The notes under the pieces were generated by a model. That model was not told the origin of the DNA. It worked only from the letters and a program-made list of their open reading frames with translations, and did not search any database. Shown piece by piece: positions 3,830 through 30,365 of a stretch of DNA of 64,000 nt. This DNA is from a bacterium (GTDB lineage Bacteria; Patescibacteriota; Minisyncoccia; Phycocordibacterales; Zambryskibacteraceae). A program made the position numbers and the translations under genes. Numbering within the stretch: the stretch's first letter is position 1; each line of letters begins with the position of its first letter. The stretch lies in contig JAHFOF010000001.1 of assembly GCA_023266935.1 (NCBI GenBank), positions 27 to 64,026 of the forward strand, in the 5' to 3' direction.

Positions 3830-4144
3830 TTAGAATTTAAGTCCACCCTCTCGAGCGGCGTTGGCTAATGATTCAACCTTGCCTGTATAAATATAACCCC
3901 CTCTGTCGAAAACCACTCGACCAACTTTTTTAGACAAACCAAGCTTGGCTATCTCTGCTCCAACTTTTTTTGGATCTTTACCTTGAGCAGCGGCCAAAGT
4001 TACTCCCTTATCATCATCAATGAGTTGAGCATACAGAGCAATGTTTGATTTAAAAACAGAAAGTCTTGGACAATCCGAAGTACCAGAAATCTTCGCTCGG
4101 ATTTTTTTGTGGTTTCTGTTTCGTTTTAGAGTTTTTGTAGACAT
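3830..4144 (-). CDS. rplR: 50S ribosomal protein L18
   Basis: 104 aa L18 family; operon context. Confidence 0.9.
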   Translation of the reverse strand: MSTKTLKRNRNHKKIRAKISGTSDCPRLSVFKSNIALYAQLIDDDKGVTLAAAQGKDPKKVGAEIAKLGLSKKVGRVVFDRGGYIYTGKVESLANAAREGGLKF

Positions 4145-4168
4145 TTTATTTATAGTGAGATTGTCGAA

Positions 4169-4702
4169 CTATGCTGATTTTTTACCCTGTTTTCGTTTGA
4201 TAACTTCATCACTGTATCTCATTCCCTTGCCTTTATAAGGTTCAGGTTTTTTTAGTGAACGAAGCTTCGCTGCAAATTCTCCTACTACTTCTTTATTCGA
4301 ACCTGAGATAGTGATGTTGTTTTTTTCTGCAGTTACCTGTAGTCCTTTGGGAATCTCGATATTGACTGGGTGAGAAAAACCGAGAGCAAAGACGATTGAA
4401 TCACCCTTTACTTCTGATTTATAACCAATACCTTCGAGAATAAGTTTTTTCTCAAAAGCTTTATTCACTCCAGAAACCATGTTTTTCAAATGAGAAGCAT
4501 AGGTACCCCAAAGTGCTCTGGACTCGAGGGTTTCCTTTTTTGGATGTATCGTCACTTCATTGCCATTCACCTTTATCTCTATCATCGGATGCACACTTTT
4601 AGAAAGTTCACCCAAAGGACCTTTGACCAACACCGAACCAGCGGAGAGAACAATCTCTGTTTTTTCTGGAAGCGTGATGATTTGTTTTCCTATGCGTGAC
4701 AT
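4169..4702 (-). CDS. rplF: 50S ribosomal protein L6
   Basis: 177 aa two-domain L6. Confidence 0.9.
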   Translation of the reverse strand: MSRIGKQIITLPEKTEIVLSAGSVLVKGPLGELSKSVHPMIEIKVNGNEVTIHPKKETLESRALWGTYASHLKNMVSGVNKAFEKKLILEGIGYKSEVKGDSIVFALGFSHPVNIEIPKGLQVTAEKNNITISGSNKEVVGEFAAKLRSLKKPEPYKGKGMRYSDEVIKRKQGKKSA

Positions 4703-4729
4703 ATGTTTATTTATAGTGAGCCTGTCGAA

Positions 4730-5116
4730 TTACCAAATGGTGAATAGAATTTCTCCTCCGACCTTTTCTTTGCGGGCGTCTCGGCCACTAAGGATTCCTT
4801 TCGGTGTAGAAAGGACTACTGCTCCGTATCCATTCTTCACCAAACGAATCTCTGAAGCTTTCTTGTAGATTCTTTTTGAAGTTTTAGAAATGCGAGCCAC
4901 ACCCTTAACCTTTGGGATTCGATTCTCCATAAGAAGGCTGACGATGAGTGATGGTTTGCCTCCTACAACTTTCTTTTCGGCACCCTTAATAAATCCTTCT
5001 TTTTTTAGAACATTGGCTATATTTTCTTTAATCTTTGAATATGAAAGTACGACATGATCCCTGCCGGCATTACCTGCATTCTTTATCCCTATAATCATGT
5101 TTGCGATTGGATCCAT
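4730..5116 (-). CDS. rpsH: 30S ribosomal protein S8
   Basis: 128 aa S8. Confidence 0.9.
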   Translation of the reverse strand: MDPIANMIIGIKNAGNAGRDHVVLSYSKIKENIANVLKKEGFIKGAEKKVVGGKPSLIVSLLMENRIPKVKGVARISKTSKRIYKKASEIRLVKNGYGAVVLSTPKGILSGRDARKEKVGGEILFTIW

Positions 5117-5405: not shown

Positions 5406-5939
5406 CTATTTCTTGAACGGGAAACCTAGATGTTCAAGAAAGGCTTGGACTTCTTTCTTTGATTTGGCTGTAGTCACTACCGTGATAGCAAGACCGAAAA
5501 CATCCTTCAATTCCTCATCGGCTGTTTCTGGGAAGATATTATGCTCTTTGATACCCAAAGTATAATTCCCCATCTCATCTGCAGAGTTTATAGAAATACC
5601 ACGAAAATCTTTGGTTCTAGGGAGAGAAATATGAATCAACTTTTCCAGAAAATCATACATTCTGTTGCCTCGAAGGGTGACTTGATATCCGACCACATCA
5701 CCTTGTCTTGATTTAAAGTTAGCGATAGCTACCTTGGCTCCACGAGGAGCAGCTTTTTGTCCAGTGATGCGAGCCAGTCTGTCTGCAATCACTTTCATCT
5801 TGTTTTTATCTTTGAGTGATCCGACTCCAACAGAAATAACCACCTTTTGGATTCGAGGTGTCTGCATTTTATTCTTATAACCCTGAGATTCTTTTAGAAC
5901 CTTGAACGCATTATTGATTTTTGTTTTTAAGTTTTCCAT
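5406..5939 (-). CDS. rplE: 50S ribosomal protein L5
   Basis: 177 aa L5. Confidence 0.9.
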   Translation of the reverse strand: MENLKTKINNAFKVLKESQGYKNKMQTPRIQKVVISVGVGSLKDKNKMKVIADRLARITGQKAAPRGAKVAIANFKSRQGDVVGYQVTLRGNRMYDFLEKLIHISLPRTKDFRGISINSADEMGNYTLGIKEHNIFPETADEELKDVFGLAITVVTTAKSKKEVQAFLEHLGFPFKK

Positions 5940-5963
5940 TTTATTTATAGTGAGTTCATCGAA

Positions 5964-6182
5964 CTATTTTGCCAATTTTACTGTCGAAGCATAAATCGGC
6001 ATGGCTTTCTCTATGATTTGACCTTTGCCATCTTTCTTTTTGGCTTTCTCATGAATCTTTTTGATATTTATTCCTTCAACCACAACTTTCATTTCTTTAG
6101 GAATAGATTTCAAAATCTTGCCGGACTTACCTTTGTCCTTGCCTGAGAGTATTACCACATTGTCGCCTTTTTTTACGTGCAT
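5964..6182 (-). CDS. rplX: 50S ribosomal protein L24
   Basis: KOW motif KKGDNVVILSGKDKGKSGKI. Confidence 0.9.
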   Translation of the reverse strand: MHVKKGDNVVILSGKDKGKSGKILKSIPKEMKVVVEGINIKKIHEKAKKKDGKGQIIEKAMPIYASTVKLAK

Positions 6183-7429: not shown

Positions 7430-7467
7430 AGTATTTGATAATAATTATTTATAGTGAGCTTGTCGAA

Positions 7468-8145
7468 CTATTTTTGAGTTGGAGCGTCCTTCTCAAAGAT
7501 GTCTCCTTTATAAATCCAAACCTTCACTCCGAGTGTCCCATAAGGCATAACTGCTTTGGTTGAACAATAATCCACATCAGCGCGGAAAGTTTGGAGCGGG
7601 ATTCGTCCGAGGTGACGATCCTCTGTACGGCTCATGGTTGCTCCTCCGAGTCGTCCTGCAAGGAAAAGACGAACTCCTAAAACATCTCTGTTCGCCATCA
7701 CCTTTTCAAGAGTAGACTTGGCCACACGTCGGAAAGGTAAACGCTTTTCTAGACCTTCAACCACCATTTGAGCAACAATTGTCGCATTTGATTCTGGAGA
7801 TTTGATTTCTTTAATATCAAGCTTCACTTCAACTTTTGGATTCAACAGTTTATGCTTGGCCAAAAGTTTTTTTATATCAATGAGAAGCTTTTGAGAACCA
7901 TCTCCGCTTCGACCAATAATCATACCTGGGCGTGAAGTAGAAACGATAATACGAAGAGCCTTTTCGCTTCTCTCAATTTCCAAATCAGCCACATAAAATC
8001 CCTTTAACTTTTTTTCCAAGAATTTGCGTATTAAAATATCTCCCCGAAGATTCTCTTGGTATTTGCCTTTAGGAGAAAACCATCGACTTTTCCAGTCTCT
8101 GAGAATTCCTAATCTATGTGAATATGGGTGAACTGTGTGTGACAT
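7468..8145 (-). CDS. rpsC: 30S ribosomal protein S3
   Basis: KH domain plus S3 C-terminal domain. Confidence 0.9.
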   Translation of the reverse strand: MSHTVHPYSHRLGILRDWKSRWFSPKGKYQENLRGDILIRKFLEKKLKGFYVADLEIERSEKALRIIVSTSRPGMIIGRSGDGSQKLLIDIKKLLAKHKLLNPKVEVKLDIKEIKSPESNATIVAQMVVEGLEKRLPFRRVAKSTLEKVMANRDVLGVRLFLAGRLGGATMSRTEDRHLGRIPLQTFRADVDYCSTKAVMPYGTLGVKVWIYKGDIFEKDAPTQK

Positions 8146-13647: not shown

Positions 13648-13674
13648 GATTTTACTTGTAGTAAGCTTGTCGAA

Positions 13675-14514
13675 CTATTTCTTGCCAACTTTTCTTCGGC
13701 GGACAATGTGTTTGTTTGAGTATTTCTTGCTTCGGCGAGATTTCTGACCCTTGCCTGTTGGCTTCCCATATACAGAAATAGCACGTCGGCGACCACGACC
13801 CTGACGACCTTCTCCTCCTCCGTGTGGGTGGTCTACTGGGTTCTGAGCTGTTCCTCGAACCGTTGGACGAACTCCAAGCCATCTGTTTCTTCCGGCTTTC
13901 CCAAGATTGATCAGTCTGTTTTCATCATTTGAAACTTCTCCAACAGAGGCCCACGCTGTTTCAAGAACCTTGCGAACTTCGGTTGAAGGCATTTTCAAAT
14001 CCACATAACCTCCATCTTTAGCAGAAACTTCTACATAATTTCCACCACTTCGAGCAATTTTCGCTCCGCCCTTTGGTTTGAGTTCCACATTATAAACAAA
14101 GGTTCCAACAGGAATATTTTTTAGAGGAAGGCGATTTCCGGCAGTCAAAGGTGCTGTTTCTGAAACTACATATGTATCTCCCACTCGGGCAGATTTATGA
14201 AGCAACACATAGCGTCTTTCACCATCTTTATAAGCGACCAAACCAATAAATCCACTTCTGTTTGGATCATATTCAACTGTTTTCACCGTGAAGGGCACAT
14301 TGATTTTGTTGTAAACGAAATCAATTTCACGAAAGAGTCGTTTGTGTCCACCTCCTTTGTGTCGAGTGGTGATTCGGCCTGTATTGTTTCGACCATTCGC
14401 TCGGCGAAAACCTTTGGTTAAAGATTTAGTAGGTTCATTTGTAGTGATGAACTTACTAAAATCAATCGATGAGTTCTGTCTCTGAGATGGTGATGTTGGT
14501 TTGTGTCGCTTCAT
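13675..14514 (-). CDS. rplB: 50S ribosomal protein L2
   Basis: 279 aa; conserved L2 C-terminal GGGEGRQ region. Confidence 0.95.
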   Translation of the reverse strand: MKRHKPTSPSQRQNSSIDFSKFITTNEPTKSLTKGFRRANGRNNTGRITTRHKGGGHKRLFREIDFVYNKINVPFTVKTVEYDPNRSGFIGLVAYKDGERRYVLLHKSARVGDTYVVSETAPLTAGNRLPLKNIPVGTFVYNVELKPKGGAKIARSGGNYVEVSAKDGGYVDLKMPSTEVRKVLETAWASVGEVSNDENRLINLGKAGRNRWLGVRPTVRGTAQNPVDHPHGGGEGRQGRGRRRAISVYGKPTGKGQKSRRSKKYSNKHIVRRRKVGKK

Positions 14515-14528
14515 ACAATTTATATTAT

Positions 14529-14822
14529 CTACATTACTTCAATTTTGTCTCCCTTTTTCAAGTAAACATAGGCTTTCTTGCCCCCGCCAGTAACACCGCT
14601 TTTACCTCGACGAAACACTTTTTTTGTTGGAATAGCCAATAGATGGACACGAATAGGAGTGACTTTGTATTGATCTCTAATCGAAGCAATAATCGATTTT
14701 TTTGTAGCTTCTTTGGTCACTTCAAACACATATGTGTTTTCTGCATTCGCTTTTAAAGCAGCCTTCTCGGTCACACGAGGTCGGAGGAGGACTGTTGGAT
14801 TTTTTAAATTAAGATTAGTCAT
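14529..14822 (-). CDS. rplW: 50S ribosomal protein L23
   Basis: 97 aa L23. Confidence 0.9.
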   Translation of the reverse strand: MTNLNLKNPTVLLRPRVTEKAALKANAENTYVFEVTKEATKKSIIASIRDQYKVTPIRVHLLAIPTKKVFRRGKSGVTGGGKKAYVYLKKGDKIEVM

Positions 14823-14847
14823 GATTATTTATAGTGAGCTCATCGAA

Positions 14848-15534
14848 CTATTTTGAAGTTTGGCCAGGCAACACTTTGAGCGAAGCTTCAGGATTTTCTA
14901 TTACCACATATTTATATTTGAGCAGAGCAAGAGGATGAAGGTTTCGAGCTTCGAGTACTTCATAATTCCCCAGGTTTGACATCGCTCTCTCTACTTCTTT
15001 ATTTTTATGGGCCAGAGCAACAATGGCTGAATTTCTTTTTTTAGAAAAAATATTTTCAAAACCTTTAATCTTTGATAGATCTACAAAAGTTTGCTTGGCA
15101 ATTTTTGTTTTTGGTTCAGAAAAATTAATTGAATCGATGAACAACACTTCTCCATCTCTGAATTTTCTAGAGAGGATAGTATAAAGTGCCTTGGCTTTCA
15201 TTGATTTTGAAACTTTGCGTTCAAAACTTTTTTCGTTCCTTGGCCCATGAGTGATACCTCCACCAACCCAAATAGGCGAACGACGAGAACCGTGTCTGGC
15301 TTGTCCGGTTCCTTTCTGTTGCCACGGCTTTTTGCCTCCTCCACGTACTTCTGCGCGGTTCTTCGTATGAGCAACGGCTTTTCTAATGCTCGAAGTAAGA
15401 GAGGTGGAAACCTGGTGAACCAAATCAGAATTCCAACGCAAGTTAAAAAGCTTTTCAGGAAGTTTGATGCTTCCACTTTCTTTTCCTTTTGTGCTGTAAA
15501 TTTTAGCTTCCATTTTATTTTGACTTGATTTCAA
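14848..15534 (-). CDS. rplD: 50S ribosomal protein L4
   Basis: 228 aa L4. Confidence 0.9.
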   Translation of the reverse strand: MKSSQNKMEAKIYSTKGKESGSIKLPEKLFNLRWNSDLVHQVSTSLTSSIRKAVAHTKNRAEVRGGGKKPWQQKGTGQARHGSRRSPIWVGGGITHGPRNEKSFERKVSKSMKAKALYTILSRKFRDGEVLFIDSINFSEPKTKIAKQTFVDLSKIKGFENIFSKKRNSAIVALAHKNKEVERAMSNLGNYEVLEARNLHPLALLKYKYVVIENPEASLKVLPGQTSK

Positions 15535-17785: not shown

Positions 17786-17964
17786 AAAATTAGTAAATTA
17801 TTGTATTTAATTAAGTAATGTAAGTTTTGAAGCGAAGGGAGCGCGCGAGAACGGCTCTCTTCGACTCAGAACGGAAATTCTGCGAAAAGTGTTGTGTTTA
17901 TTGGATTTTTTAGATTTTTAGACTAAAAAAGGCCGAACAAAAATGCACCTAACGCGTAGGCACT

Positions 17965-17993
17965 ATCTTACGCAAAAGAGTGAAAATAGTCAA
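17965..17993 (-). promoter_or_regulatory. sigma70-like promoter upstream of tuf (leader ~180 nt with hairpin)
   Basis: Minus strand TTGACT, 17 nt, TAAGAT. Confidence 0.5.
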
Positions 17994-18010
17994 CTAGTAA
18001 GCCCTTATAA

Positions 18011-18045
18011 AAAGAAAAACCCGACTACCATTTGGTGTCGGGGTT
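18011..18045 (-). terminator. terminator of the ncRNA
   Basis: CCCGAC-accaaatggta-GTCGGG hairpin followed by TTTTTCTTTTTAT on the minus strand. Confidence 0.6.
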
Positions 18046-18420
18046 GCTTTGAAGCAAATGATTGAAACGAAAGAGCTCGCGTGAGCCCGGGGCGGCGACG
18101 GGTTGCGTACCGTCTACCGCGCCCGAGTCACGCTCCCGCGATGTGCCAAGCGCTTGGCCGACAACCACGGGGGTCGTACCAATGCCCTCTTGATTTTCGC
18201 TTTCTGCCTGGGGCCCGGGCTAAAGCTAGTTCCAATTTTTAACTACAATCACGAATGGGAGGTCTGGAACGAATGTTCCCTTTCCATCCGGCGGTACTGA
18301 TGCTTTTGGGGTTCTGCAGAACCCTACTAGGCTCCGCGATTCCTCTTTGGTTTGCTCCGCTTTTCTTTTGCTCGATGATCTTCGCTCAATTACACGGATG
18401 TCGAGCCACACCCGCTTCTA
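18046..18420 (-). ncRNA. unassigned structured, GC-rich non-coding RNA (~375-400 nt)
   Basis: Bounded by a TTGACA-16nt-TATTAT promoter (18427..18454) and a terminator (18011..18045), both on the minus strand; ~60% GC island in a 40% GC genome; no credible ORF. Confidence 0.45.
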
Positions 18421-18426
18421 TCTTCC

Positions 18427-18454
18427 ATAATACACCTTTCGGGTCTTTTGTCAA
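18427..18454 (-). promoter_or_regulatory. promoter of the ncRNA
   Basis: Minus strand TTGACA, 16-nt spacer, TATTAT. Confidence 0.55.
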
Positions 18455-18508
18455 GCGGTTTTATCATTTCATTTATCTAAATCCTAAAATACCCATAATT
18501 TTAGCCAT

Positions 18509-18533
18509 AAAAAAGCCCCGCGGGTGCGGGGTG
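18509..18533 (-). terminator. terminator after gene 18536..18826
   Basis: CCCCGC-accc-GCGGGG hairpin followed by CTTTTTT on the minus strand. Confidence 0.6.
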
Positions 18534-18535
18534 TA

Positions 18536-18826
18536 TCATTGATTGTTAGTGACGAGGTCTCGAGATTCGTATTTGGTCTTACGAATGGGTTCAAGGAGAC
18601 TCACTGCCACAATCCTGAACTTTTTGTCTTTGGACCTGTAGAGTACGAGTTCGATTCTACAGCGAAACTTCGTTCGACCGTCGCTTGGTTGCATATCTGA
18701 GGCATGAGCAACCACGTACTTCGTCACCATCCCATGCAAATGAAGTACAGATTGCCAATGAAAGTTGTCTTGGCTCCTATCACGCTCGTATCGAAATACG
18801 AGCTCGATAATCTTGCCCTTTTTCAT
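18536..18826 (-). CDS. hypothetical protein (96 aa), weak RelE/ParE-like pattern
   Basis: Basic small protein; C-terminal motif FRCRIELVLYRSKDKKFRIVAV loosely resembles the RelE/ParE toxin core. Confidence 0.4.
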   Translation of the reverse strand: MKKGKIIELVFRYERDRSQDNFHWQSVLHLHGMVTKYVVAHASDMQPSDGRTKFRCRIELVLYRSKDKKFRIVAVSLLEPIRKTKYESRDLVTNNQ

Positions 18827-18906
18827 ACGTTCCGAGAGTTGAAGGTATGAGAAACCGTGAACGTCTTATTTAAATCTGCCCCAAAGCAAGAAAATAGTCA
18901 ATAAAA

Positions 18907-19398
18907 TTATTCCTTTGCTGTCTTTACATAATCGACCACTCTATCCATATTGTTATTGATGTAGGCAATCCTATTGTATTTAGTCCACAATTCTTTTGCT
19001 TCTTCGTAGGAAATGGCTACCCCATCAACTTCACCAGTGATCACATCTTCATGAGTAGGTGACAAGCTGTTTATTTGTAATTCAGGTATAACATTGCCTG
19101 CGCTATCCAAATCTGTAAAACCCAATTTTGAACCCGATCTTGCAAATATATTTTTTAAAATAATTTTCTTACCATCTATTTCTCCAGTTATCACGGCTTC
19201 TTTCTGAACATCTCCGTTTTTTAAGTATGTTGGTTCGCTGATTTCTAATTTTAGATCTGTAGTTTTCAGTAATTCTCTTTCTTCGTTAGATAAATTGTTA
19301 AAGGCGTTTTCTCTCACAACAGAGCTTACTACTTGCTGTTCGTTCGCATTTTCGTGCAACATTTGCTGTGACTCTGCCCATGTTTTTGGTTCTTCCAT
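18907..19398 (-). CDS. hypothetical protein (163 aa)
   Basis: ORF between fusA and tuf; acidic; no family assignable. Confidence 0.45.
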   Translation of the reverse strand: MEEPKTWAESQQMLHENANEQQVVSSVVRENAFNNLSNEERELLKTTDLKLEISEPTYLKNGDVQKEAVITGEIDGKKIILKNIFARSGSKLGFTDLDSAGNVIPELQINSLSPTHEDVITGEVDGVAISYEEAKELWTKYNRIAYINNNMDRVVDYVKTAKE

Positions 19399-19489: not shown

Positions 19490-21655
19490 TTAGGCCTTCA
19501 CTCCTGTTCTCTGTTCAATAATAGTTGTGGCAACGTTTGGAGGAACGATAGCATAATGATCAAATTCCATAGTAGAAGAACCTCGACCTTCGGTCATGCT
19601 TCGAAGATTGGTGACATAGCCGAACATTTCAGAAAGAGGAACCATCGCTTTAATCACCTTTAATTCGTTTCTATCTTCCATCGCTTCGATCTGTCCACGT
19701 TTTGAAGAAAGGTTTCCAGTGATGTCTCCCATGAACTTTTCTGGGACAACAACTTCTACTTTCATAATTGGTTCGAGGATAACTGGTTTAGATTTTTTAG
19801 CCGCTTCTTGAAAAGCTTGTGAGGCTGCGATTTTGTAAGCGATTTCCGAAGAGTCCACATCGTGATACGAACCGAAATTGAGTTCACAAGAAATATCCAC
19901 CATCTTGTAGCCAGCGAGAATTCCACGTTCCATCGCTTCCTTCACCCCCTTTTCAACTGCAGGAATAAATTCTTGGGGAATAACACCTCCTTTGATCGCA
20001 TCGATGAATTCAAACCCTTCTTCTCGATGAGCATTCTTGGGAACTTTTTCTTCTGGATCATATTTTGGAAGAGGTTTAATTTTTATCTTGACGTGACCGT
20101 ACTGACCCTTACCTCCTGTTTGTTTAATGTATTTGTTTTCTACTTCGGCTTCACCAGTGATAGTTTCCTTATAAGCTACTTGAGGTTTGCCTACATTTGC
20201 TTCTACACTAAACTCGCGTTTCATACGATCAACGATAATTTCTAGATGGAGTTCTCCCATGCCCATGATAACTGTCTCGCCCGTCTCTTGATCTGATTTA
20301 ATTTTAAAGGTTGGGTCTTCATCCGAAAGTCGTTTGAGCGCCATACCCATTTTCTCTTGGTCAGCCTTGGTCTTCGGTTCGATGCGAAGAGAAATAACTG
20401 GTTCAGGAAAAGTGATTTGATCAAGAATTATTGGATTGTTCTCATCAGCAAAAGTGTGTGAAGTCTTTGCATCCTTCAAACCTACTGCAGCTGCGATCTC
20501 TCCGGCGAAAACTTTTTTCACTTCCTCACGTTTATCTGCTTGGAGACGAACGATTCGACCAAGTCTCTCTTTGTTTCCTGTAGTTGCATTATAAATATAG
20601 CTTCCAGATTCAATCGTTCCTGAATAAACACGAAAGAAAGTAAGTTGTCCGACGAATGGATCAGCTTGGAGTTTAAATGCGAGTGCTGAAAATGGTTCTG
20701 AATCAGAAGCGTGTCGAAAAACTTCTTCGCCTGTGTTCGCGTCAATCGCTTTAATAGGAGGGATGTCGAGTGGAGATGGGAGATAGTCAACCACAGCATC
20801 GAGCACGAGCTGAACACCCTTGTTTTTTAACGCAGAACCAGCCATGACTGGGAAAATTTTGTTGGCGATCACCGCTTTGCGCAGAGTTTCTTTGAGTGCT
20901 TCGATTGAAATTTCTTTCCCTTCCAAATAAGCATTCATCAGACCTTCATCGTTTTCTACTATTCGTTCAACCAATTCTCTTCGATATTTTTCTGCATCAG
21001 CTTTTAAATTATCTGGGATTTCTTTCTCAATGACTTGATTACCCATATTGCCTTCGAAGTAATACGCTTTCATTTTCAAAAGGTCTACAATCCCATCATG
21101 TTTTTCTTCTTCGCCAATTGGGATTTGGAATCTTACTGCTTTTTTTGAAAGTCTGTCGAGAATTGATTTGTATGAACGTTCGAACGATGCACCGGTTCGG
21201 TCAAGTTTATTGATAAAACAAATTCGAGGTACTTGAGCCTCTTCTGCGTAGCGCCAGTTGGTTTCAGATTGAGGCTCAACGCCAGCTACTCCATCGAAAA
21301 CCACAACCGCACCGTCGAGTACACGCAGAGAGCGTTTAACTTCTACGGTAAAGTCGATGTGCCCAGGAGTGTCAATAATATTAAAACGATATTTTTTTTC
21401 TTTATTCTGTCTATCAGCTTCAGGAAGATATGTTGGACCCCAGAAACAAGTGATGGCGGCAGCGGTGATGGTGATGCCCCTCTCTCGTTCTTGCTCCATC
21501 CAGTCAGTAGTAGTGTCTCCTTCGTGCACTTCACCGATTTTGTGTTGAGAACCAGTATAAAAAAGCACACGTTCAGAAGTAGTTGTCTTCCCAGCATCAA
21601 TATGCGCGATGATTCCAAAGTTTCGTACTCGTTCTAAAGGATAGTCTCGTTCCAT
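19490..21655 (-). CDS. fusA: elongation factor G
   Basis: 721 aa; AHIDAGKTT and DTPGH G-domain motifs; EF-G domains II-V. Confidence 0.97.
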
Positions 21656-21774
21656 ATAAGGTTAATTTTGGGCTAAAAATAAAAAGCAGTACCTGCTTAA
21701 GTAGGACTAGAATACAGGATCCAAAGGGAATAATCAAACAAAAACTCTCTTTCGGGAGATTTTTCTAATTATAG

Positions 21775-22044: not shown

Positions 22045-22137
22045 TTTTATATTAAGCTACTATAATTAAATTATAACACGTAAAAACTCCCTCTCGGGAG
22101 TCTTCTGTTTACCAAGCGAAGTGAGTGAAAGCTTTGT

Positions 22138-22542
22138 TTATTTAAAATCTCTTTGTTTTAACTCGACCTCTTCTTTCAAGAGATCGAACTTAACTATAAA
22201 AATATCAAAGAATCTCCTTTGCCCAACCACCCCCCAGGGCATCACCCGACCAGCTACATCAGGCATAAACCCGGCCTCTATATCATAGGACCAACCGCCA
22301 ACTTCAATTTTAACTTTATGAAGAAAGTACAAAGAAGCTTTACCTCCAATACCAAACACTTCATTTTTCTTACCCTTTTCAATATCTATTCCAATAGCTC
22401 TGCCTATTTCTGCATCAAAAATGCAGAGATCTGCTCCAGAGTCCACGAGAACTTCATAGCCTATCTCTTTATCTCTTAACTTGAGTTTTATTGGTATGAC
22501 TGGTCGTAGAGTACTTCCGTATTTTGCATACCTAAATTTCAT
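22138..22542 (-). CDS. retropepsin-like (clan AA) aspartic protease
   Basis: VLVDSGADLCIF catalytic D-S-G-A motif plus GIGG flap-like motif; 134 aa. Confidence 0.75.
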   Translation of the reverse strand: MKFRYAKYGSTLRPVIPIKLKLRDKEIGYEVLVDSGADLCIFDAEIGRAIGIDIEKGKKNEVFGIGGKASLYFLHKVKIEVGGWSYDIEAGFMPDVAGRVMPWGVVGQRRFFDIFIVKFDLLKEEVELKQRDFK

Positions 22543-22544
22543 AG

Positions 22545-22757
22545 TTAAAAAGAACCCACAAATGCTGACAAATTTTCAGGTATGCGAGTGAGAAATGGAG
22601 TTTTTTCAGTTTTCTTCTGTGCTTTTAATAGAGCTTCTTTTAAGGTTTTTCCAAAACCAAGAACTGTCTCTTCGTCTTCTGCAAGAGCAACCCATTGCCC
22701 TTTATATTTTTTATATAGTGTAGTCCAATCTTTTGCCATACATATATTATTACACAA
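22545..22757 (-). CDS. small protein (DUF5678-like), partner of the retropepsin gene
   Basis: Motif YKKYKGQWVAL..ET..GFGKTLKEALLKAQKK resembles DUF5678-type small proteins; its stop is 3 nt from the protease start. Confidence 0.5.
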   Translation of the reverse strand: MCNNICMAKDWTTLYKKYKGQWVALAEDEETVLGFGKTLKEALLKAQKKTEKTPFLTRIPENLSAFVGSF

Positions 22758-22772
22758 AAACAGATGTAGGTG

Positions 22773-23243
22773 CTACCACGCAAAATGCGCGAAGGCTTTG
22801 TTTGATTCAGCCATCTTGTGAGTATTTTCTCTCTTACGAACTGCATCTCCTTCATTCTTTGAAGCAGAAATAAACTCTTCGGCGAGTTTCATATGCATCG
22901 GTTTGCCCTTCTTGGCTCTTGCTGCTTCTATAATCCACTTCATCGAAAGGAATTGTCGTCTTTCAGGACGAACTTCACGAGGAATTTGATAGTTCGCACC
23001 TCCAACACGACGAGAACGAACTTCCATAGTAGGTCCAGTGTTCTTCAAAGCTTCTTCGAAAACTTCCAAAGGATCTTTAACTTTCGCAAGTTCTTTAATG
23101 GCGTCGAGGGAACGATAAACCACAGCACGAGCAGTAGTCTTCTTGCCTTCGAGCATTAAATAATTAATAAACTTCGCGATCTTTTCAGAATTATAAACTG
23201 AATCTGGGGTTAATTTTGGTTTGGCTTTAAGTTTGCGTCGCAT
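22773..23243 (-). CDS. rpsG: 30S ribosomal protein S7
   Basis: 156 aa S7. Confidence 0.92.
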   Translation of the reverse strand: MRRKLKAKPKLTPDSVYNSEKIAKFINYLMLEGKKTTARAVVYRSLDAIKELAKVKDPLEVFEEALKNTGPTMEVRSRRVGGANYQIPREVRPERRQFLSMKWIIEAARAKKGKPMHMKLAEEFISASKNEGDAVRKRENTHKMAESNKAFAHFAW

Positions 23244-29431: not shown

Positions 29432-29449
29432 GAGAAACTACAATAGTAA

Positions 29450-29562
29450 CGAGAAACCACATGGTTGTCTGCATTCCACCTGTTCGGATTCTCGACGGAG
29501 TTCGCGTTCAAGTTCCAACCGTCGTTGTTGGCGTTCCAGTTCGCGTTCACAGCCCAGAGTCG
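29450..29562 (-). repeat. DGR template repeat (TR)
   Basis: 113 bp homologous to 29824..29936; every one of 21 mismatches is a minus-strand A in this copy. Confidence 0.88.
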
Positions 29563-29804: not shown

Positions 29805-29816
29805 TTCAAGGGAACA

Positions 29817-30365
29817 TCAGTTGCGAGAAACCACACGGTCGCCCGCACCCCACCCGTGCGGATTCCCGACGGAGTTCGCGCGCAAGCCCCAACCGTCGCG
29901 GCCGGCGCTCCAGTCCGCGCGCACAGCCCAGAGTCGACCATCCTTACCACGAAGGTAAAAGATGAACCACTCGGTGCTCCCGCGGTTGTCCGCAAGGAAC
30001 TGCTTGAATTGGGATACCGATGTTTCCGCCTTGTCCCCCAGCTCGGTGAGGATGGGAGCATCGAGTGACGACTGCTCGAGCTTCCTTACAGCAAGCTCGG
30101 CCACATCGGTGACGGGAACTTCGAGGCCAAGGAACTGGCTCTCAAAATTGTTCCCGAACCACTTGGCCCCAGCTTCTGCAAAATACTGCTTCGAGGTGGT
30201 GACTGCCGGTTGGGCAGGCATCCTCACCGTGCGGAGAAGGGTGAGGAGGGTCTTGAAGACGATCTCGCCCTGACCACCGATAAAGCGAAGGAAGTTCTCC
30301 CAACCGCCCATACGGTTGATGCAAGCTTCCGTCTGCCCAGCGGTTACATCGTTGTACTTGGCCAT
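29817..30365 (-). CDS. DGR target protein (variable C-terminus)
   Basis: 182 aa; GC-rich; GGGGAG Shine-Dalgarno; last ~40 codons (RLWAVRADWSAGRDGWGLRANSVGNPHGWGAGDRVVSRN) overlie the VR; the TR-frame translation has Asn at the varied positions. Confidence 0.8.
   Translation of the reverse strand: MAKYNDVTAGQTEACINRMGGWENFLRFIGGQGEIVFKTLLTLLRTVRMPAQPAVTTSKQYFAEAGAKWFGNNFESQFLGLEVPVTDVAELAVRKLEQSSLDAPILTELGDKAETSVSQFKQFLADNRGSTEWFIFYLRGKDGRLWAVRADWSAGRDGWGLRANSVGNPHGWGAGDRVVSRN
29824..29936 (-). repeat. DGR variable repeat (VR)
   Basis: Copy with G or C where the TR has A (minus strand); lies inside the 3' end of the target gene. Confidence 0.88.

Follow-up and report, generated by a model that had tools for sequence, protein, structure and literature searches.

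A DUF5678–retropepsin gene pair inserted between rpsG and fusA in a Zambryskibacteraceae genome: a putative type II toxin–antitoxin-like module

Introduction

Why does the junction between rpsG and fusA, the str operon genes of ribosomal protein S7 and elongation factor G (EF-G), hold two additional small genes in a Patescibacteria genome, and what might these genes do together? The locus lies in a 64,000-nucleotide stretch of DNA, hereafter called the window in its whole length, taken from contig JAHFOF010000001.1 of assembly GCA_023266935.1 (positions 27 to 64,026), which belongs to a bacterium of the family Zambryskibacteraceae. The pair consists of a gene for a small protein of the DUF5678 type, followed directly by a gene for a retropepsin-like aspartic protease. 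The original prediction, drawn from the letters of the sequence, had described the pair as lying inside the str operon, had offered a protease with its cognate substrate or inhibitor, or a toxin–antitoxin (TA)-like module, as possible functions, and had proposed a hidden Markov model (HMM) search and a survey of gene adjacency as checks.

The pair is an inserted, autonomous and horizontally mobile cassette of about 635-665 bp and is not integral to the str operon: its location was read correctly, but its membership of the operon does not stand, in view of a promoter of its own and of a duplicated rpsG 3' end. With a probability of about one half, in our estimate, it is a TA-like module of type II, the protease being restrained by the conserved and disordered C-terminal tail of the DUF5678 protein. 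Among the functions offered earlier, those of a TA-like module or of a cognate inhibitor are thus favoured, by the apparent reuse of DUF5678 with other partners, by the cassette structure and by an insertion hotspot shared with HicAB and ParE.

Results

The protease was found where it had been predicted, as a protein of 134 aa with its VLVDSGADLCIF and GIGG motifs, and it matched Pfam PF13650 (Asp_protease_2) above the gathering score (E = 1.1e-5, 26.5 bits, cut-off 24.3). PF13975 and PF00077 also matched, below their cut-offs, and no Pfam match was obtained beyond these three clan AA families. The homologues formed 829 clusters, the best 120 of which were 66-80% identical to the protease, about 132 aa long and from Patescibacteria. 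The catalytic motif L32-V33-D34-S35-G36-A37 occurs once per chain, with D, S and G invariant across 81 sequences; the flap G64-x-G-G67 (GIGG) is conserved, and the invariant residues include G64, G67, H75 and Q108 in addition to D34-S35-G36. An AlphaFold2 (AF2) model (pLDDT 87.8) adopted the retropepsin fold. Foldseek returned 85 matches to it in the Protein Data Bank (PDB) at E<=1e-3, the top ones being the HIV-1, FIV and EIAV proteases (E ~1e-4 to 1e-5) and the best full-length one Rickettsia APRc (5c9f, TMq 0.67), and a PDB search by sequence gave marginal FIV protease matches only. Retropepsins with one catalytic aspartate per chain act as homodimers. Since the present protease has one such residue per chain, a homodimer would be needed to form a two-aspartate active site, and we propose that the enzyme is active in that state. 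Both genes of the pair are under strong purifying selection, with dN/dS values of 0.03-0.12 in close pairs for the protease and the DUF5678 genes alike.

The small partner is indeed of the DUF5678 type, with a match to PF18929 (E = 9.2e-10, 38.6 bits, cut-off 23.2), and both ORFs therefore passed their Pfam gathering scores in the HMM search. Its length had been given as 64-70 aa, of which the shorter value was borne out: nearly all of 100 homologues were 62-66 aa long with the N-terminus MAKDW, and a conserved -10 box lies within the extension to 70 aa, so that the ATG at 22739, and not the upstream TTG, was taken as the start. The gap to the protease gene, first read as 3 nt, is in fact 2 nt (TAA-CT-ATG). 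Adjacency was surveyed in 87 loci, comprising 80 species-representative genomes, six further contigs and the window, and a DUF5678 ORF stood directly upstream of the protease gene, on the same strand, in every one of them (87/87). Neither of the outcomes named beforehand as refuting, missing family matches or unconserved adjacency, was thus observed. The two genes overlapped by ATGA in 70 loci and were -17 to +15 nt apart in the remainder. The linkage held beyond this set, in the divergent pairs of L092 and L093/L094 (two contigs with an identical pair), where the divergent DUF5678 proteins P0364 and P0329 retain a P...[YF][VI]G tail and are followed by a divergent protease of the same family (75-86 bits against the protease profile). 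The 149 upstream neighbours spanned 115 Pfam families, and no third conserved gene was found among the neighbours surveyed, in a survey that rests on crude ORF calls. A neighbour-joining tree of the pair was poorly resolved.

In the AF2 model of the small protein (pLDDT 79.8), an alpha-beta-beta-alpha-beta core precedes a low-confidence C-terminal tail (residues 53-64). This tail is as well conserved as the rest of the protein. P54 and G62 do not vary, F/Y60 and V61 hardly vary, and the resulting pattern P-x5-[YF]-V-G is followed by 2-3 variable residues. A full scan of 1.84 billion representatives gave 819 DUF5678 clusters; the best 150 were all short (47-169 aa), and no natural fusion of DUF5678 to a protease occurred among these 150 representatives. 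The model superposed on DUF5678-annotated proteins of Pandoravirus, with a TMq of 0.68 and an rmsd of 1.6 A. The viral proteins concerned (A0A2U7UG46, S4VV29 and A0A2U7UD66 in BFVD, TMq 0.66-0.68) represent an unexpected host range for this domain.

DUF5678 was also found beside other partner genes. In P0372, P0374 and P0375, the domain carries a longer, acidic C-terminal tail and is encoded upstream of YafQ/YoeB-like genes of ~70-100 aa, at a spacing of 1 nt in L087, L089 and L090 and of 72 nt in L088, with the same promoter arrangement ahead of the genes as for the protease pair. The YafQ_toxin profile was fully covered in two of three such genes and over its C-terminal two-thirds in the 71-aa ORF of L088; one of the contigs is plasmid-like (ParB, Replic_Relax) and another adjoins a HicA toxin gene. 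In P0303, a PIN_3 domain is merged with DUF5678 in one ORF, which is followed by a 130-aa gene. Reuse of the domain with YafQ/RelE-like toxins is consistent with these sequences but not proven by them. Each type of tail goes with its own type of partner, as would be expected if the tail recognises the partner, in the manner of type II antitoxins.

The same tail can be read in another way, with the small protein as the protease's own substrate or precursor, cut near its C-terminus so as to release a peptide or to activate itself. Retropepsins commonly accept aromatic-hydrophobic residues around the scissile bond, the tail does end in such a conserved pair within [YF]-V-G, and both genes are co-produced in strict linkage. 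However, the 2-3 variable residues past the motif would make the released product trivial, and no signal peptide or modification enzyme was seen nearby. Moreover, a binding or neutralising role fits better with an N-terminal domain that is apparently also used with non-protease partners; for this last reason, we consider the substrate explanation improbable and the least likely of the rivals.

An extended -10 element ahead of the DUF5678 gene matches the position-specific consensus T-15 G-14 n T-12 A-11 n A-9 A-8 T-7, established over 83 loci, and this box ends 5-9 nt ahead of the ATG in 72 of these 83 loci, versus 70 of 304 control genes. A Shine-Dalgarno-like motif was absent in 75 of 81 loci, and the DUF5678 gene of the window also lacks a Shine-Dalgarno sequence. 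The fixed position of the -10 box, together with the missing Shine-Dalgarno sequence, suggests that the pair is transcribed from its own promoter as a leaderless or near-leaderless mRNA. At the other end, a G+C-rich hairpin followed by a T-rich sequence directly follows the relic of the rpsG end described below, and for this reason is probably the original rpsG terminator, which would now end the cassette transcript.

Elsewhere in the window, the ribosomal-protein cluster holds six copies of a 31-nt repeat (4142-4172, 4703-4733, 5937-5967, 7441-7471, 13648-13678 and 14821-14851). Read on the minus strand, it is promoter-like (TTCGACA, spacer, TATAAAT), and at least three copies (5937, 7441 and 14821) extend into the start codon of one of the listed ORFs. 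This repeat suggests many internal promoters and leaderless starts, and promoters of the leaderless type seem to be the norm in this genome.

The boundaries of the unit carry the signature of an insertion. The pair is bracketed by the functional rpsG 3' end (NKAFAHFAW*) and by a relic of that end (NKAFTHFAW*), which together form a direct repeat of 30 nt, 80% identical, with a spacing of 664 nt. Locus-specific flanking repeats of 20-79 nt, retained above the 99th percentile of a mismatched-pair null, bracket the pair in 13 of 78 loci, namely the window and twelve others (L060, L023, L042, L028, L001, L013, L082, L055, L032, L050, L074 and L017). In 12 of these 13 loci, 19-55 nt separate the end of the upstream copy from the ATG (122 nt in L001), and the downstream copy begins -4 to +9 nt from the protease stop in nine of them. 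The repeats derive from the local target: in L042 they copy the rplE 3' end, and in L023, L082 and L050 the 5' start of the gene downstream. In L029, L032 and L046, a post-rplE motif begins at the protease stop codon. L055 is a two-unit array at the L5|S14 junction, with three copies of a 20-nt post-rplE motif (5752, 6400 and 8495) that enclose the pair and a block of ~2.1 kb before rpsH.

Turnover between relatives was seen in L027 and L031, which share the rpsG|fusA junction and have 94% identity in EF-G and 78-92% in the flanking DNA. Their pairs, by contrast, are only 66% and 62% identical at the protein level and 55-74% at the DNA level, and the extra ORFs on both sides differ (compared stretches L027:999-2230 and L031:5572-6840). 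The cassette has been replaced between these close hosts. It is the combination of a promoter of its own, a target duplication in the window, the same signature elsewhere and turnover between relatives that identifies the pair as a cassette rather than a part of the operon. The exact window junction of rpsG relic to hairpin, as an empty site, was not found in metagenomes.

The same junctions also carry other cargo. A degenerate search for the S7 C-terminal codons retrieved a metagenome contig (L095, Ga0209542_10054231, 153-1265) in which the rpsG 3' end (NKAFAHFAW*) occurs three times in tandem, at spacings of 542 and 541 nt. These copies enclose two two-gene units, with a TGnTAnnAT box ~7 nt before the ATG, as in the window, and with ATGA-overlapping genes. 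The first unit encodes a HicB-like protein (HicB_lk, 26 bits, cut-off 27) and HicA (HicA_toxin, E = 1.7e-14); no family could be assigned to the second, whose resemblance to RelE/ParE is a by-eye reading only. A terminator hairpin follows the array, and fusA lies ~1.4 kb downstream, at 2692. L095 thus holds TA-type cassettes in an array, with the gene end as a repeated spacer. In a Taylorbacteria genome (L009), the rpsG|fusA gap holds, at 4543-5056, a ParE_toxin gene (E = 1.1e-6) preceded by a weakly RelB-like ORF, and the protease pair lies ~750 nt further downstream. Among the 28 metagenome loci from the S7 codon search with detectable EF-G, the gap between S7 and EF-G measured 6-160 nt in 15, 162-326 nt in four and 560-2510 nt, with assorted cargo, in nine. 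Because the contents of this gap vary so across loci, the S7|EF-G junction is regarded as a hotspot, and the pair as one of its many cargos. The long and variable target duplications and the arrays of rpsG ends match no transposon, integron or att-site mechanism that we could name.

These data bear directly on the possibility that the protease is a translation-linked housekeeping enzyme, with DUF5678 as its adaptor or chaperone. Around 19 of 84 loci do lie at three positions inside translation operons (six at S7|EF-G, ten at L5|S14-S8 and three after EF-G), and strong purifying selection and invariant catalytic residues would suit such a role. As precedents, RimB trims polyglutamate from ribosomal protein S6, and Prp trims L27. 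RimB is indeed a cytoplasmic, retropepsin-like enzyme that acts on a ribosomal protein (PMC11957791). Yet the context is unrelated in some three quarters of the loci, the unit has been inserted with duplication of its target and carries a promoter of its own, and the same junctions accept unrelated cargo that includes HicAB and ParE. The S7|EF-G gap is moreover empty (6-160 nt) in most genomes sampled by the S7 C-terminus, and hosts that are nearly identical differ greatly in their copies of the pair. As for a RimK-type ATP-grasp neighbour, none was found among the 25 commonest upstream-neighbour families or in the window flanks, downstream neighbours not having been scanned as a set, and the Pfam matches of the protease are to clan AA only. 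A housekeeping role is accordingly judged clearly unlikely.

An anti-phage module, acting by abortive infection or another form of defence, would be closer to the TA-like module that we favour: DUF5678 would keep the protease in check until infection released it, and the two explanations differ mainly in trigger and benefit. In PADLOC, the protease matches the candidate-defence model PDC-M08B (PDLC04405, E = 1.5e-7, residues 14-83) and, more weakly, further PDC-M08B and PDC-M52B models. In Sulfolobales, small proteins with a retropepsin domain are reported to be encoded among the accessory genes of type III CRISPR loci (PMC3973734), and both hotspot behaviour and the rapid replacement of cassettes between close relatives would be in line with defence. 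However, the partner model PDC-M08A is not matched by the small protein, which argues that this is not the same two-gene system; no other recognised defence gene recurred beside the pair in the neighbour survey, and the PDC systems are themselves only candidates. Defence as the primary function therefore appears unlikely on balance.

The features of the junction are collected in Table 1. The acidic ORF of 89 aa between the pair and fusA was considered as a third component and rejected, having no relative in any of 86 loci and no Pfam family match; it appears to be a separate, neighbouring insertion that is not conserved with the pair. NCBIfam and PHROGs gave zero matches for all three ORFs of the window locus.

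Table 1. Coordinates, in the window, of the genes and sequence elements at the rpsG–fusA junction.
Feature	Position	Strand	Remarks
rpsG	22773..23243	minus	
Direct repeat, copy 1: functional rpsG 3' end	22774..22803	minus	Last 9 codons and most of the stop
Extended -10 element TGTAATAAT	22746..22754	minus	Ends 6 nt before the DUF5678 ATG; matches the consensus
Small ORF, 70 aa from TTG	22545..22757	minus	As first read
DUF5678 small protein, 64 aa from ATG	22545..22739	minus	Pfam PF18929; proposed antitoxin-like partner or inhibitor
Retropepsin-like aspartic protease, 134 aa, ATG start	22138..22542	minus	Pfam PF13650; proposed effector or toxin
Direct repeat, copy 2: rpsG 3'-end relic	22110..22139	minus	Begins 2 nt within the protease stop codon; right-hand boundary of the insertion
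G+C-rich hairpin (stem ACTCCCTCTCGGGAGT), then T-rich TTTTACGT	22086..22101	T-rich sequence on minus	Read from sequence
Acidic ORF, 89 aa	21775..22044	minus	
fusA	19490..21655		

Two terminator-like hairpin copies (21740-21758 and 22082-22100; 19 nt, 89% identical, spacing 342 nt) flank the acidic ORF, and TATAAT-like boxes precede it; this ORF may be a second, single-gene cassette beside the first. Between fusA and tuf, an ORF of 163 aa (18907..19398, minus strand) has no family match, and the ~1.1 kb before tuf (17786-18906) contains no ORF of at least 110 aa; this region is a further non-canonical insertion in the str operon region. A 123-nt direct repeat was also observed at 29440-29562 and 29814-29936 (80% identical, spacing 374 nt), amid overlapping ORF calls.

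Discussion

In the TA-like reading that we favour, an extended -10 promoter located 6-8 nt before the ATG would drive a probably leaderless transcript, from which the 64-aa DUF5678 protein and the 134-aa protease would be co-produced by translational coupling. The single-domain retropepsin would homodimerise to assemble its two-aspartate active site, and the P-x5-[YF]-V-G tail of the small protein would bind the protease and inactivate it, by filling the substrate cleft or by preventing the homodimer from forming. Should the small protein be lost or degraded, the free protease may cleave cellular proteins, and this cleavage could arrest growth, with the effect of stabilising the cassette or of aborting a phage infection. 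In this scheme, we infer physical binding, inhibition by the tail, toxicity and the trigger.

Several observations weigh against such a scheme. The three YafQ_toxin matches that suggest reuse of DUF5678 (E = 3e-5, 1.6e-3 and 1e-3, on three independent contigs) all fall below the curated cut-offs. The model of the small protein resembles no solved structure, and a PDB search by sequence gave nothing meaningful; without a solved structural relative for the model, no known antitoxin fold can be claimed for DUF5678. Nor did the small protein match any PDC-M08A model (E<=1) or any other PADLOC partner model. Inverted repeats were not enriched at the promoter, where the best perfect arm averaged 5.4 nt versus 5.0 nt in shuffled sequences. 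Covariation between the two proteins (mutual information with average product correction, 81 pairs, an underpowered sample) yielded top pairs that were scattered and patternless. About one locus in four lies in an operon of ribosomal proteins or elongation factors, which could alternatively reflect a translation-linked role. Finally, phages, plasmids (by tblastn) and an IMG/VR scan gave no copy of the pair, a silence that counts as weak evidence because these collections contain few Patescibacteria elements.

A broader proposal may be put forward more tentatively, as a possibility to which we give less credence than to the module itself: a new TA family, with a retropepsin toxin and a DUF5678 antitoxin of swappable tail, could exist together with TA modules that behave as minimal units inserting at gene ends. 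The YVG tail would then be specific for the protease and the acidic helix for YafQ/RelE-like toxins, and the units, made of a promoter and two ORFs, would insert at rpsG or rplE ends in Patescibacteria while duplicating 20-79 nt, and would so build up arrays spaced by copies of the gene end.

If the protease proves to be the effector of a TA or abortive-infection system, proteolysis of the HIV-protease kind would join the short list of toxin mechanisms, and DUF5678, with at least 819 clusters and no known function, would gain a role. A retropepsin inhibitor that is itself a naturally encoded protein would also be of interest to protease biochemists. Patescibacteria, among which the pair is widespread, are uncultured episymbionts of tiny genome size, and each accessory gene that they retain is informative. 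The cassette moreover illustrates how the most conserved operons of a streamlined genome can take up accessory genes and stay intact, by means of a promoter of their own, boundaries tight to the ORFs, long target duplications and arrays of rpsG 3' ends, and this structure points to an insertion mechanism so far undescribed.

Among known systems, HIV-1 protease has the same fold, a single D-[ST]-G per chain and a GIGG-type flap, and is an obligate homodimer. In HIV-1, a peptide encoded just upstream, the transframe p6*, restrains the protease until it is released. Unlike this arrangement, the upstream element of the present pair is a separate protein and not part of a polyprotein, Gag, reverse transcriptase and integrase are all missing, and the sequence identity between viral retropepsins and the window protease is ~15-25%. 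RimB, RloA and APRc are, like the window protease, single-domain, clan AA enzymes of bacteria. A partner protein assists RimB, which is found in the cytoplasm (PMC11957791). RimB and RloA act with the ATP-grasp proteins RimK and RloC and cut glutamate-rich sequences. APRc is anchored in the membrane, whereas RloA is a secreted enzyme (PMC4140852, PMC12239564). No member of this trio has a DUF5678 partner or a cassette structure, and the absence of an ATP-grasp RimK from the window flanks and from the 25 commonest upstream families separates the pair from the RimB/RimK type. With regard to the PDC-M08 system of PADLOC, gene B is matched by the protease and gene A is left unmatched by the DUF5678 protein, and the pair is thus not a member of it. 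In the literature searched, we found no publication on the DUF5678–protease pair, no combination of a retropepsin-like protease with a toxin–antitoxin system and no mention of PDC-M08, DUF5678 itself being mentioned only in an unrelated plant study.

As a mobile unit, the cassette recalls integron cassettes and elements that integrate at 3' ends, which are also compact promoter-plus-ORF units in series, separated by repeats and frequently with TA cargo; as with 3'-end-integrating elements, the end of the interrupted gene is restored by a duplicate. Unlike the repeats of integron cassettes, those found here copy the local target (rpsG end, rplE end or start of the downstream gene) and differ from locus to locus, instead of being a cassette-borne attC, whose structure was not modelled, or one fixed att site, and no integrase was found in or beside the unit within the window.

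A last comparison is with type II TA modules such as DinJ-YafQ, RelBE and HicAB. The pair differs from them in that its putative effector is an aspartic protease, and not an RNase, a kinase or a toxin of another known class, that the DUF5678 fold matches no solved antitoxin, and that no operator palindrome was found. It shares with them two small, co-directional genes with an ATGA overlap and the small partner first, a promoter of its own, a variable context and cassette-like mobility, and a partner made of a folded N-terminal domain and a disordered C-terminal tail, in addition to a type of insertion site in common with HicAB (L095) and ParE (L009). In this comparison, the pair is a putative TA-like module of type II whose effector and partner domain are both new.

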